From: a virus
Reading direction: 5' to 3' (one strand)
IMG/VR virus record: IMGVR_UViG_3300014720_002669
Length of the DNA stretch: 64,000 bases
Made by a program: the position numbers and the translations under genes. This document shows positions 28,354 to 37,127 of the stretch, in pieces (the stretch's first letter is position 1; every line of letters begins with the position of its first letter). The notes under the pieces are model-generated. The model was not told where the DNA came from. It worked only from the letters and a program-made list of their open reading frames with translations, and ran no database searches.

Positions 28354-28380
28354 ATCATCGGGTGTTGATCACCTAAAAGA

Positions 28381-28580
28381 ACCCGCTGGGGTAACGCCTG
28401 GCTAGTATGACCCGTACGAAGGAGAAGTGAGTTCGTGACTCAAGGGTGGTACCACTCCTACCGAAGTGGCGCTGGCAATGCGAGAACGGACCCTGTCGTG
28501 AAGCGGGTGGAAGGTGTGTGAGATTTGCGGGGCAACCCAAGAGATGATACACTAAATTACCGCCGGGGGTCGCAGAGCAT
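28381..28580 (+). ncRNA. Candidate structured non-coding RNA (~200 nt)
   Basis: ORF-free and GC-rich. ACCCGCT/AGCGGGT (28381/28502), TGAGT/ACTCA, CCACT/AGTGG, GTGTGT/ATACAC, GGG-GCAA-CCC GNRA hairpin, TGCGA/TCGCA. Confidence 0.55.
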
Positions 28581-34789: not shown

Positions 34790-35335
34790 ATGACAAACTG
34801 CGCCGAGCCCAGCACTACTGGCAGGCGCAACAGCGTTCCGCAGTCAAAGTTTCTGGAGAGCACTGTGTCAGACAGATATCCAATTTTCAAAATTCTCGAT
34901 GAATATCCAACCATAACCAGCGGCCTGGGCACAGACACCTTTACTGTGAGCACTGGTACAAGTTATCCAAATTATGGTGCTGTGCCTACCACAGGCACCG
35001 ACTGCGGCTATGTGTACACTTTGCCCAACACAGTACCTTGGATCTCCAGTGGTGGCAATGGTACCAGCATCAGTGATCCTTCTTTGAAAGTCAATCAAGG
35101 TGGAAAGATCCAAATGCAGGGACAAAATGCTGACATTGAGATCAATGGCAAAAGCATGAAGGCCTGGATGGAACAGGTGGAAGAGAGATTGAACATCTTG
35201 ACTGTCAACCCTGACATGGAAAAAGACTGGGATGACCTACGCAGACTGGGCGAACGCTACAAAAAGTTAGAGAAAAAGTGCCGAGAAAAAGCCCGCATGT
35301 GGGCAGAGTTAAAGAAAGTACAGATCAAACCATGA
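34790..35335 (+). CDS. Hypothetical protein (start uncertain)
   Basis: ADIEINGKS..IL..NP..EK.W..L coiled C-terminus. Confidence 0.55.
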   Translation: MTNCAEPSTTGRRNSVPQSKFLESTVSDRYPIFKILDEYPTITSGLGTDTFTVSTGTSYPNYGAVPTTGTDCGYVYTLPNTVPWISSGGNGTSISDPSLKVNQGGKIQMQGQNADIEINGKSMKAWMEQVEERLNILTVNPDMEKDWDDLRRLGERYKKLEKKCREKARMWAELKKVQIKP

Positions 35336-36156
35336 CACCTAAACAACGCATCAAACACATTTCAAAATGGATCCAAGACTATGCCCGACGAGCAGGTGTA
35401 GATACCTTGGTAGTGGGCATTTCAGGCGGGATTGACAGCTCGGTTGTCAGTGCCTTGTGCGCCGAAACAGGACTCCGAACCATTGTGGTACAGATGCCCA
35501 TTCGTCAAAACCGGAAGCTGGACAATCTAAGTTCAGCACAGGCTGGCTGGTTGCTGGAACAATTCCCCCACAATGTCACACACATGAGCATGGACTTGAC
35601 CACAGTGTTTTCTGCATTTGAAAAGAAAGTGCAACCATTCTGTGCACCAGAACAAGAACCCAACGAGCGTGAACAACTGGCGTTTGCCAACTCACGTGCT
35701 AGATTGCGCATGATGACCCTGTATCAAATTGCACAGAGCCATGGTGGCATTGTGGTGGGCACAGGCAACAAGGTGGAAGATTTTGGTGTGGGATTTTTCA
35801 CCAAGTACGGCGACGGTGGCGTGGATATTTCACCCATTGGTGACTGCATGAAAACTGATGTGTGGGCCATGGGACAGGAACTGGGCTTGCTGGATGCCAT
35901 AATTGATGCCTCGCCCACAGACGGACTCTGGGCTGATGACCGCAACGACGAAGATCAACTGGGCATGTCCTACCCTGACCTTGAACGCATGATGAGATTG
36001 GACCTGTTGAAAGGGGCCAAGATCGTGGATTCAAACATGCCTGGCAGTGCCAAACTCAGTGCTGATGATCGTAAAAAACTAAAACGTTATAAAGAACTAC
36101 GTGCTCAAAATCAGCACAAGATGACTCCTGTCCCTGTTTGCATGATGCCTCGTTAA
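35332..36156 (+). CDS. nadE: NH3-dependent NAD+ synthetase
   Basis: GISGGIDS, NSRARLRM, GTGNKVE, FFTKYGDG, PTDGLW, DEDQLG. Confidence 0.95.
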   Translation: MTPKQRIKHISKWIQDYARRAGVDTLVVGISGGIDSSVVSALCAETGLRTIVVQMPIRQNRKLDNLSSAQAGWLLEQFPHNVTHMSMDLTTVFSAFEKKVQPFCAPEQEPNEREQLAFANSRARLRMMTLYQIAQSHGGIVVGTGNKVEDFGVGFFTKYGDGGVDISPIGDCMKTDVWAMGQELGLLDAIIDASPTDGLWADDRNDEDQLGMSYPDLERMMRLDLLKGAKIVDSNMPGSAKLSADDRKKLKRYKELRAQNQHKMTPVPVCMMPR

Positions 36157-36229
36157 CTGCTATGTTAATGACAAAAACACACCATTTTGACAGTTTTTTG
36201 ACAGCCTTACAGCCAGATAAAATAAGTAA

Positions 36230-36540
36230 AAGTGGTGGTAGAACAACACATTGCAATCAAATAGGATCTTCTACTGCTGATTGGTACCTTGTCCAATTGA
36301 TTAAAACAAGTACCCGTAGCACTGACAAGGGTTTGTCCAAGCCCAAATCAGTGTTCGAAAGAGACTCTCGGAAAGTCTCTTCGTTGACAACTAGAATTGG
36401 ACAGGCTCATTTCCCAGGACGCGAGCTTGTCCCAAACGAGTATGCCAAGGAGGCCCGAGGTCTATCTATGCTCATCTCAACTGAACTTTTGTCAACGTGA
36501 TCTACTCGGGTCTCCGCGTACAGCCACGTATTGGCGTTTA
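36230..36540 (+). ncRNA. Candidate large structured RNA / 5' leader (~310 nt) with a long-range pseudoknot
   Basis: Stems 36234-43/36269-78, 36290-98/36395-403, 36319-25/36348-54, 36359-66/36374-81, 36449-59/36505-15. A 9-bp CGTTGACAA/TTGTCAACG pairing (36382/36489) crosses them. TAAGTA just upstream. Confidence 0.65.
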
Positions 36541-36551
36541 AAGGAAATCGA

Positions 36552-37127
36552 ATGAAGTTTGTGAAAAATCAACCCAACGTGTTAGCAACATGGGCTGGAA
36601 CAATTATCAAAAGTGCGGCCCTATTTGTAGTGGCATTTGCAGTGTGGACAGTATGTGAATCAAGACTGAAAACTCTGAGCAATGATCGAGCAGCCAACAT
36701 GGCCGGCTACGTGTCAGCTGCCGACCGATTGAAACAACTCAACTGCTTGACTCAGAACATATACTGGGAAGCTGCCTCAGAGCCTTTTGAAGGCAAAGTG
36801 GCAGTGGCCCAGGTCACATTAAATAGAGTAGAGTCAGGTAAATTTGCCAACACAGTATGCGGTGTGGTCTATCAAAAGAATGTGTTCTACGAACGAGTGG
36901 TGTGTCAGTTTAGTTGGTTCTGTGAATCCACACACCGAACTAGACCGGTACATCGACCCATGTGGCAAGAAAGCGAACTAGTGGCCAAAAAAGTCCTATT
37001 GGAAGACTTCCGATTGCCCGGCATGAAAAATGCCTTGTACTATCACGCCGACTATGTCAACCCCAACTGGCGCTTGCCCCGAATTGACCAAATTGGTCGT
37101 CACATCTTTTATGGAGAAAAAATATGA
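36552..37127 (+). CDS. Cell wall hydrolase, SleB/Hydrolase_2 family, with N-terminal TM
   Basis: CL..NIYWEA..E...GK.AVAQVTLNRV, CQFSW, ALYYHADYVNPNW, IGRHIFY. Confidence 0.92.
   Translation: MKFVKNQPNVLATWAGTIIKSAALFVVAFAVWTVCESRLKTLSNDRAANMAGYVSAADRLKQLNCLTQNIYWEAASEPFEGKVAVAQVTLNRVESGKFANTVCGVVYQKNVFYERVVCQFSWFCESTHRTRPVHRPMWQESELVAKKVLLEDFRLPGMKNALYYHADYVNPNWRLPRIDQIGRHIFYGEKI

Follow-up and report, generated by a model that had tools for sequence, protein, structure and literature searches.

A conserved structured RNA 5' of endolysin genes of uncultured T4-like giant phages, a candidate cis-acting regulatory leader

A non-coding RNA of about 310 nucleotides (nt) was identified between the NAD synthase gene (nadE) and a SleB-type cell-wall hydrolase gene in a 64,000-nt stretch of viral DNA from IMG/VR record IMGVR_UViG_3300014720_002669 (this whole stretch is referred to as the window). 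The RNA occupies 36223–36551 on the + strand, including a TAAGTAAAA motif at its 5' edge. An earlier note on the window had proposed an unrecognized riboswitch-like leader, ribozyme or independent non-coding RNA (ncRNA) tied to the hydrolase. The structured RNA and its linkage to the hydrolase gene both stand, and the pseudoknot as it had been drawn holds only in part. Selection acts on the structure, which is encoded on the + strand and is found essentially only just 5' of hydrolase genes of one family. On balance we lean towards reading 36231–36551 as the 5' leader of a T4-like giant phage's late endolysin mRNA, acting in cis as a conformational regulator and probably tuning lysis-enzyme output.

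The spacer encodes a structured RNA on the + strand

Folding of the + strand was better than that of dinucleotide shuffles, a test set beforehand, with z-scores of -3.16 for the whole spacer and -3.82 for 36223–36554, whereas the - strand was no better than its shuffles (z = -1.11). Because of this difference (-3.8 against -1.1), and because many G:U pairs are compatible with the + strand only, the functional strand is the + strand. At least nine stems are predicted, in agreement with the seven or more that had been claimed, and the claimed bounds also hold, the 5' edge lying directly after TAAGTA (36223–36228) and the 3' end at the Shine-Dalgarno (SD) sequence. The four pairs of complementary segments named in the earlier note were all located where it had placed them: CGTTGACAA at 36382–36390 with TTGTCAACG at 36489–36497, GGAGGCCCGAG at 36449–36459 with CTCGGGTCTCC at 36505–36515, TGTCCAATT at 36290–36298 with AATTGGACA at 36395–36403, and GGTACCTTGT at 36283–36292 with ACAAGTACC at 36306–36314.

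The proposal that the RNA belongs to no recognized family agrees with a covariance search using the 4227 models of Rfam 15, evaluated at gathering score and at E ≤ 10. No match at gathering score was obtained in the 64-kb window, matches at E ≤ 10 within 35900–36800 consisted only of small nucleolar RNA and long non-coding RNA noise (E 0.24–7.7), and six loci carrying other subtypes of the leader gave no match. Neither transfer RNA nor transfer-messenger RNA was found in the window with ARAGORN, phage GenBank records contained no similar DNA, near or distant, and no sigma-70 promoter or intrinsic terminator was found within the leader. No description of the leader RNA was found in the literature; the IMG/VR catalogue of 8,495 short candidate RNAs (PMC10690425) may contain fragments of it.

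Protein coding is excluded, because variation is spread evenly over codon positions (29/26/28 and 30/30/29 variable columns), 1-nt indels shift the 36138–36500 frame in loci L002 and L004, and stops occur in all frames of subtypes B and D. The open reading frame (ORF) at 36138–36500, whose protein-type conservation would have spoken for coding, showed none and no codon-position periodicity. The leader shares 89–95% nucleotide identity with its four closest relatives, against 78–86% for the coding flanks. A small protein made from this ORF, or a leader peptide, with the structure merely incidental, is therefore given next to no credence. It could draw on a stop-free frame of 91 codons in the window (85–88 codons in subtype C) and on a 10-codon mini-ORF after an internal AAGGAGG in subtype A; beyond the broken frames and absent periodicity, however, subtypes B, C and E have no AUG for the mini-ORF, no Pfam match was found, and changes within stems are compensatory.

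Homologues lie 5' of Hydrolase_2 genes

Homologues were gathered by pattern scans of viral and metagenome collections, by a hydrolase-based fetch, and with a covariance model of the core (R1). The resulting family comprises about 70 distinct sequences, found in uncultured T4-like giant-phage contigs. Subtype A, which includes the window, is ~331 nt long and comprises 25 distinct sequences; subtype B is ~242 nt and subtype C 292–303 nt, with further forms designated D to H. The gene 5' of the leader varies between loci (nadE, a ferredoxin-like ORF or others) and the 3' neighbour is Hydrolase_2 in every subtype tested, so the RNA is linked to the downstream gene only. A same-strand hydrolase homologue lies 26–63 nt 3' of the core in 30 of 33 further model matches; one of the other three is truncated by the end of the locus and two have their best hydrolase match ~740 nt downstream. 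Across the family, nearly all of the 3' genes that were readable are of the SleB type. The tie to the cell-wall hydrolase was thus upheld, the RNA occurring essentially only just 5' of Hydrolase_2/endolysin genes, whatever the upstream gene. No genome examined had more than one copy of the RNA, and each had a single hydrolase gene.

Some loci depart from the usual spacing or hydrolase sequence. At L245:4691–5600 and L258:5336–6200 the best hydrolase match begins ~740 nt 3' of the leader core, and the gene after the leader in L267 and L269 is 29–34% identical to the hydrolase of the window. These four loci may hold divergent or tandem hydrolase paralogues with leaders.

Leader RNA was held by 9 of 80 loci fetched through NAD synthase. 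Most of the remaining loci have leader-less nadE–hydrolase spacers of 81–113 nt that end in ...GAGTAAGTAAAACTACC-ATG without an SD sequence. The leader is also absent from two complete relatives, one of 343 kb and one of 364 kb with terminal repeats. Since both of these and the majority of nadE-linked loci, in which TAAGTAAAACTACC directly adjoins the ATG, do without it, the leader RNA is dispensable.

Among 185,579 species genomes of bacteria and archaea, a pattern scan revealed no true copy at pattern level; the eight loci that it returned were chance matches, none of which matched the covariance model. Five loci from the viral scan (L096, L098, L099, L102 and L104) were likewise rejected as chance matches.

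On a quick tree of the hydrolases each leader subtype coincides with one hydrolase clade, and leader-bearing and leader-less clades are interleaved. Six changes in leader presence or absence are needed on this tree, which is compatible with a single origin. Judged from these sequences, vertical descent with repeated loss fits better than a mobile cassette.

The conserved core is a hairpin followed by a three-way junction

The core shared by the subtypes is predicted to consist of a hairpin, Pa, and a three-way junction closed by helix P7 with arms P8 and P9 (Table 1). In the model-based alignment of 39 distinct sequences 95.4% of cells were paired and double changes occurred in 10 of 27 pairs. 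None of 500 shuffles reached the observed values, and slid controls were 31–49% paired. Variation falls mostly within stems and is compensatory, the pairs with compensatory changes numbering 4, 10 and 13 in three subtype alignments. Covariation among homologues is accordingly present in both core and subtype alignments, and this, together with the very high nucleotide conservation, establishes that the RNA structure is under selection.

Table 1. Features of the leader RNA and its flanking genes; positions are those of the window
Feature	Position	Strand	Sequence or pairing	Remarks
NAD synthase gene (nadE)	35278–36156			Pfam NAD_synthase 1.4e-47; 5' neighbour of the spacer
TAAGTAAAA motif	36223–36231	+	TAAGTAAAA	5' edge of conserved block; likely late-promoter variant
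H1 hairpin	36234–36278	+	GGUGGUAGAA / UUCUACUGCU	Variable 5' domain
H2 hairpin	36283–36314	+	GGUAC-C-UUGU / ACAA-GUACC	Loop CCAAUUGAUUAAA
H3 hairpin	36315–36357	+	CACUGA.../...UCAGUG	Variable tip
Hairpin Pa	36360–36380	+	Stem AGAGAC/GUCUCU	Loop UCUCGGAAA
Candidate kissing contact	36366–36371 with 36455–36460	+	Pa loop UCUCGG with CCGAGG	Crossing helix; CCGAGG in P9 apical loop
P7 5' strand	36382–36389	+	CGUUGACA	Partner 36490–36497; one base after Pa
Arm P8	36399–36432	+	GGACAGGCUC / GAGCUUGUCC	Length varies between subtypes
Arm P9	36438–36473	+	Stem GAGUAU/AUGCUC around GAGUAUGCCAAGGAGGCCCGAGGUCU	Apical hairpin AGGCC-CGA-GGUCU (36451–36463)
P7 3' strand	36490–36497	+	UGUCAACG	Partner 36382–36389
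Subtype-A tail	36505–36521	+	CUCGGGUCUCCGCGUAC	Complementary to P9 core 36440–36459; alternative fold
P10, last hairpin	36523–36535	+	GCCA-CGUAU-UGGC	Just 5' of the ribosome-binding site
SD and start of hydrolase	36541–36554	+	AAGGAAA	AGGA at 36542–36545; ATG 36552
SleB-type cell-wall hydrolase gene	36552–37127	+		191 aa; Pfam Hydrolase_2 3.3e-24

P7 was paired in 99.7–100% of cells in 34–39 distinct sequences, its second pair being G:C in 23, A:U in 13 and G:U in 3 of the distinct sequences. The earlier note had described this helix as a 9-bp long-range pseudoknot (CGTTGACA/TGTCAACG). The helix itself is retained, with eight conserved, covarying pairs. The ninth pair (A:U) is mismatched in 19 of 25 close subtype-A relatives and was dropped together with the pseudoknot topology, as P7 appears best described as the nested closing helix of a three-way junction in the family consensus. 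Several members of the A8 alignment (L261, L256, L251, L253, L268, L257 and L269) carry one uncompensated mismatch in the P7 3' strand; members of this alignment were fetched with a fixed pattern for the P7 5' strand, so compensated P7 variants are invisible there. No consistent covarying partner column was found for the CUAG versus AUGG variation that follows P7.

The Pa stem is paired in all cells, and a comparison of subtypes shows double changes at two of its pairs (A:U/G:C; C:G/A:U/U:A), and the UCGG of its loop is invariant in every subtype. Arm P8 shows compensatory changes within subtype A (C:G<->G:C) as well as in subtypes B and C, amounting in the model-based alignment to double changes in 7 of 8 pairs. 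Arm P9 encloses the most conserved sequence of the family, GAGUAUGCCAA..GGCCCGAGGUCU, which surrounds its small apical hairpin; subtypes A–D all keep AGUAUGCCAA and GGCCCGAGGUCU unchanged, and the remaining subtypes nearly so. In other subtypes the P9 stem takes the forms GAGUA/UACUC, GAGUAUG/CAUACUC and GAGAG/CUCUC, in different 3' contexts.

An all-against-all scan of alignment columns returned a single conserved crossing helix, UCUCGG/CCGAGG, between the loop of Pa and the apical loop of P9. This contact is 100% paired, changes at two positions in wobble-compatible ways only, and retains its 4-bp centre, UCGG:CCGA, in all subtypes. A loop–loop contact between Pa and P9, and hence a candidate pseudoknot, is plausible on these grounds. 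Pairing of a tail motif, YCCG, with CGGA of the Pa loop was considered as well and rejected: CGGC/GCCG in subtype B fits, and subtypes F, G and H and some members of subtype A break it.

The 5' domain and 3' platform differ between subtypes

The domain 5' of the core, formed by H1–H3 in the window, differs between subtypes. H1 is paired in 99.6% of cells in the 25 subtype-A sequences and includes several G:U pairs that fit the + strand only; analogous covarying hairpins are present in other subtypes. The pairing GGTAC-C-TTGT/ACAA-GTACC, which had been described as an alternative to the first closing stem, corresponds to H2, in which 98.7% pairing is accompanied by a single wobble-compatible change and three mismatches that lack compensation. 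The CCAAUU of its loop has other possible partners at 36279–36284, 36395–36400 and 36530–36534. H3 is paired in 100% of cells and shows compensatory double changes at two pairs (C:G<->U:A and A:U<->G:C).

Neither of the two closing helices in the earlier drawing was supported by the homologues. That of the first domain, TGTCCAATT/AATTGGACA, is invariant in 25 sequences and so uninformative, its GGACA overlaps the covarying P8, and it has no equivalent in other subtypes. The helix proposed for the second domain, GGAGGCCCGAG/CTCGGGTCTCC, is present in subtype A only, where pair 230:290 is mismatched in 20 of 25 sequences and nothing is compensated.

Small leaders of ~100 nt were observed at L201:1360–1470, L202, L209 and L213. 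In these 'mini' leaders the 5' hairpin domain of subtypes C/E (GGGUGCAGAA...AUCUGCACC) stands alone, followed by an SD sequence, and the hydrolases of these loci form one clade. Because the mini leaders carry the 5' domain alone, this domain is a separable module.

The 3' platform of subtype A contains a tail that is absent from other subtypes and complementary to the core of P9 over ~17 bp, a pairing used in the minimum free energy fold. Its CUCGGG and GCGUAY are invariant in the 25 subtype-A sequences and the middle varies without compensation. Since the tail/core fold is incompatible with P9 and with the loop–loop contact, it is a candidate alternative state in subtype A, as far as the predicted folds indicate. 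P10 is conserved in subtype A and ends 5–10 nt before the SD sequence. Its equivalent in L194, CAACCA/UGGUUG with the same loop, represents a G:C<->A:U exchange, and covarying equivalents occupy the same position in subtypes B, C, D and E.

Promoter-like motif and ribosome-binding site

One exact copy of TAAGTAAAA is present in the window. The motif is conserved 5' of the hydrolase gene both in RNA-bearing and in RNA-less relatives, with TATATAAAACTAC at the same place in more distant relatives, and in the two complete leader-less relatives the hydrolase start codon lies directly after it. The related TAAATA stands within 40 nt 5' of the start in 8 of 96 ORFs, a 9.6-fold enrichment; it frequently takes the form GTAAATA, just a few bases away from the ATG, and looks like the core of a T4-type late promoter. 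Because TAAGTAAAA is conserved whether or not the RNA is present, and because TAAATA is enriched 5' of ORFs, we infer that TAAGTAAAA is a variant of the late promoter. If TAAGTA is a late promoter, the hydrolase mRNAs of leader-less phages would be nearly leaderless. In the RNA-less loci L008–L016 and L165–L200 (e.g. L012:3813–3903) the hydrolase ATG directly follows TAAGTAAAACTACC, without an SD sequence.

The SD-like hexamers AAAGGA and AAGGAG are the top enriched words 5' of ORFs in the window, which argues that SD-led initiation is used by the host. Every leader-bearing locus has a strong SD sequence. In subtype C the SD is predicted to be ~0.6 paired, through a CUCC segment that pairs with GGAG of the SD in the consensus fold. 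Mimicry of the P7 5' strand by the ribosome-binding site, which would let the P7 3' strand mask that site, is suggested in subtypes C, D, G and H; the idea was not adopted, since the complementarity there ranks only in the top 4–7% of 96 background ribosome-binding-site windows and is lacking in A and B.

A cis-acting leader is the favoured reading

In the mechanism that we propose, the leader would probably be transcribed from the late-promoter-like TAAGTAAAA motif and would fold into the variable 5' domain (H1–H3), the conserved core and a short 3' platform (tail and P10). The invariant UCGG of the Pa loop would most likely dock on the invariant CCGA of the P9 apical loop and compact the core; in subtype A, the tail could pair with the P9 core instead, giving two mutually exclusive folds. 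In response to a small molecule sensed in a riboswitch-like manner, or to a bound protein, the leader would set in cis the amount or timing of endolysin translation late in infection. This cis-regulatory reading is preferred because of the position of the RNA, its exclusive gene linkage, the invariance of bases in its loops and junction and the alternative folds seen in particular subtypes. Between a leader, a ribozyme and an independent ncRNA, position favours the cis leader.

A conserved, covarying domain with invariant junction and loop nucleotides, as expected of a riboswitch, is present. Placement in a 5' untranslated region is putative: position and strand fit in every locus with no intervening terminator, the start being taken from the motif only. 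A new riboswitch class, or possibly a new ribozyme, that reads a metabolite or second messenger of host or phage and gates endolysin translation, with the UCGG/CCGA contact and P7 stabilized by the ligand, would provide an RNA-based input into lysis timing; it is a tentative proposal that we consider doubtful as it stands.

Several results weigh against a conformational regulator. The gene context points to no ligand or protein partner, and since related phages do without the RNA its role would be modulatory at most. The SD of subtype A is predicted to be mostly open (paired probability 0.14–0.52, and 0.21 in the window). No conserved anti-SD was found, RNAduplex pairing of the ribosome-binding site with the leader giving weak, inconsistent sites in subtypes A and B, and an expression-platform logic common to all subtypes did not emerge. 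The kissing contact shows no double changes, only invariant bases and wobble-compatible changes, and subtype E retains 4–5 bp of it. The transcription start and transcript ends are putative, placed by means of the motif.

An open SD in subtype A, together with the lack of a universal alternative pairing, would suit a constitutive element that senses nothing, serving to protect the 5' end from host or phage RNases or acting as a ribosome stand-by or translation-enhancing platform. RNA-less relatives use a near-leaderless TAAGTAAAACTACC-ATG without an SD, and every leader brings a strong one; as leaders bring an SD that leader-less loci lack, the cassette may simply supply another translation start. 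Such an element would not need 20–30 unpaired or loop nucleotides to stay invariant between subtypes with hydrolases of only 55–65% identity, nor would it need a conserved tail complementary to the core, and we judge it rather unlikely.

The size of the RNA, its modular domains, its pseudoknot-like contact and its invariant loop nucleotides resemble those of ribozymes and large ncRNAs, and the core is highly conserved. An independent stable ncRNA or a ribozyme, for example a self-cleaving one, could therefore be processed out of the transcript to work in trans or on its own backbone, its proximity to the hydrolase reflecting co-transcription. We consider this improbable. No ribozyme or large ncRNA of Rfam 15 matched, even at E ≤ 10, and none of the self-cleaving models (hammerhead, twister, twister-sister, pistol, hatchet, hepatitis delta virus-like and glmS) gave a match; there is no terminator or 3' end signal of its own, the last hairpin standing 5–10 nt before the SD; and the fixed distance of 26–63 nt between the core and one gene family is typical of cis elements.

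Relation to known RNAs

None of the closest known systems matches the leader by model or by architecture. Bacterial genes for cell-wall-degrading enzymes carry structured, partly pseudoknotted RNAs in their 5' untranslated regions, among them the c-di-AMP riboswitch (ydaO-yuaA) and the orphan lysM-* and M23 motifs, and the ligands of the orphan lysM-*, M23 and related motif RNAs are unknown (PMC5737381). The leader shares with the c-di-AMP riboswitch (RF00379) the association with cell-wall hydrolases and did not match its model even at E ≤ 10. It differs from all of these RNAs in being found in phage contigs only and in its combination of Pa and a three-way junction with a loop–loop contact. 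The manA and wcaG motifs of T4-like cyanophages gave no Rfam match either, and differ in gene and architecture.

In T4 itself, early read-through transcripts of gene e (lysozyme) have their ribosome-binding site masked by a single hairpin, within which the late promoter is located. Gene e and the leader are alike in that each involves a T4-type phage, mRNA structure around a late promoter and the mRNA of a lysis enzyme. The leader, however, is a multi-domain RNA of 240–360 nt lying wholly 3' of the promoter-like motif, and the ribosome-binding site of subtype A is predicted to be open. Masking of the gene e type was rejected for this RNA, as the promoter-like motif is 5' of the entire structure and the SD has a paired probability of only 0.14–0.52 in subtype A.

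Purine riboswitches are three-way-junction aptamers with loop–loop docking. By analogy only, the leader resembles them in a closing helix that is possibly a switching element, in its two arms and in a loop–loop contact of invariant bases. It differs in that the kissing partner Pa lies outside the junction, and it is several times larger.

Insertion of a selfish or mobile element, either an ORF-less group I-like intron or another cassette, into the interval from promoter to hydrolase gene would account for the varying presence of the leader among otherwise syntenic relatives and for the interleaving of leader-bearing and leader-less hydrolase clades. In the window, moreover, two long-range pairings, P7 and TGTCCAATT/AATTGGACA, cross in the manner of P3 and P7 of a group I intron. 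The core of group I introns has no whole arm between P8 and the 3' strand of P7, whereas the conserved arm P9 stands precisely there in the leader. The P3-like pairing is invariant and conflicts with the covarying P8, no P4–P6-like organization is apparent, and no group I match (RF00028) was obtained from Rfam. There are no exons and no exon continuity, the flanks being non-coding and the 3' flank having its own SD where leader-less relatives have CTACC, and the RNA is single-copy in each genome and never sits at a different gene, with each subtype tracking one hydrolase clade. An insertion of this kind is accordingly very improbable.

Lysis timing is a central life-history trait of phages and is usually attributed to holin and antiholin proteins and to promoter timing. 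A large conserved RNA at the endolysin gene of an uncultured giant-phage group, with close relatives that lack it, points to an additional, RNA-level control. If the RNA senses a molecule, it would be an orphan riboswitch of a new class whose output is easy to follow, and would link host physiology directly to lysis. The roughly 70 natural variants, the modular subtypes and the natural leader-less controls make the system suited to bench work, and the family, being absent from Rfam 15, could be deposited there as a covariance model.

Source record and neighbouring genes

The IMG/VR record from which the window derives is 103.6 kb long with an estimated completeness of 30%. Its relatives are contigs of 320–364 kb; two of them, both near-complete, carry the gene for a T4-type Gp23 capsid protein. 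The hydrolase of the window matches PHROG endolysin families and its N-terminal stretch looks hydrophobic by eye; the record and four relatives each contain a single Hydrolase_2 gene. Another ORF-free gap of the window, at 28356–28580 and 5' of a ParB-like operon, is not matched by core model R1 and therefore falls outside the leader RNA family.

At L017:3843–4258, L018:3825–4260 and L074:3762–4140 a small 2x[4Fe-4S] ferredoxin-like ORF, with C..C..C...CP motifs, lies between nadE and the promoter region of the hydrolase gene. In L086 and L092 such an ORF lies next to the leader on its 5' side.

In the window, the 66 nt that separate the nadE stop codon from TAAGTA (36157–36222) are 87–95% conserved as well. 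They contain TTTTGACAG / TTTTTTGACAG in tandem, together with a AATGNCAAAAAC...CCATTTTG block that is conserved and present in leader-less relatives too, and may represent a nadE terminator or a regulatory site.

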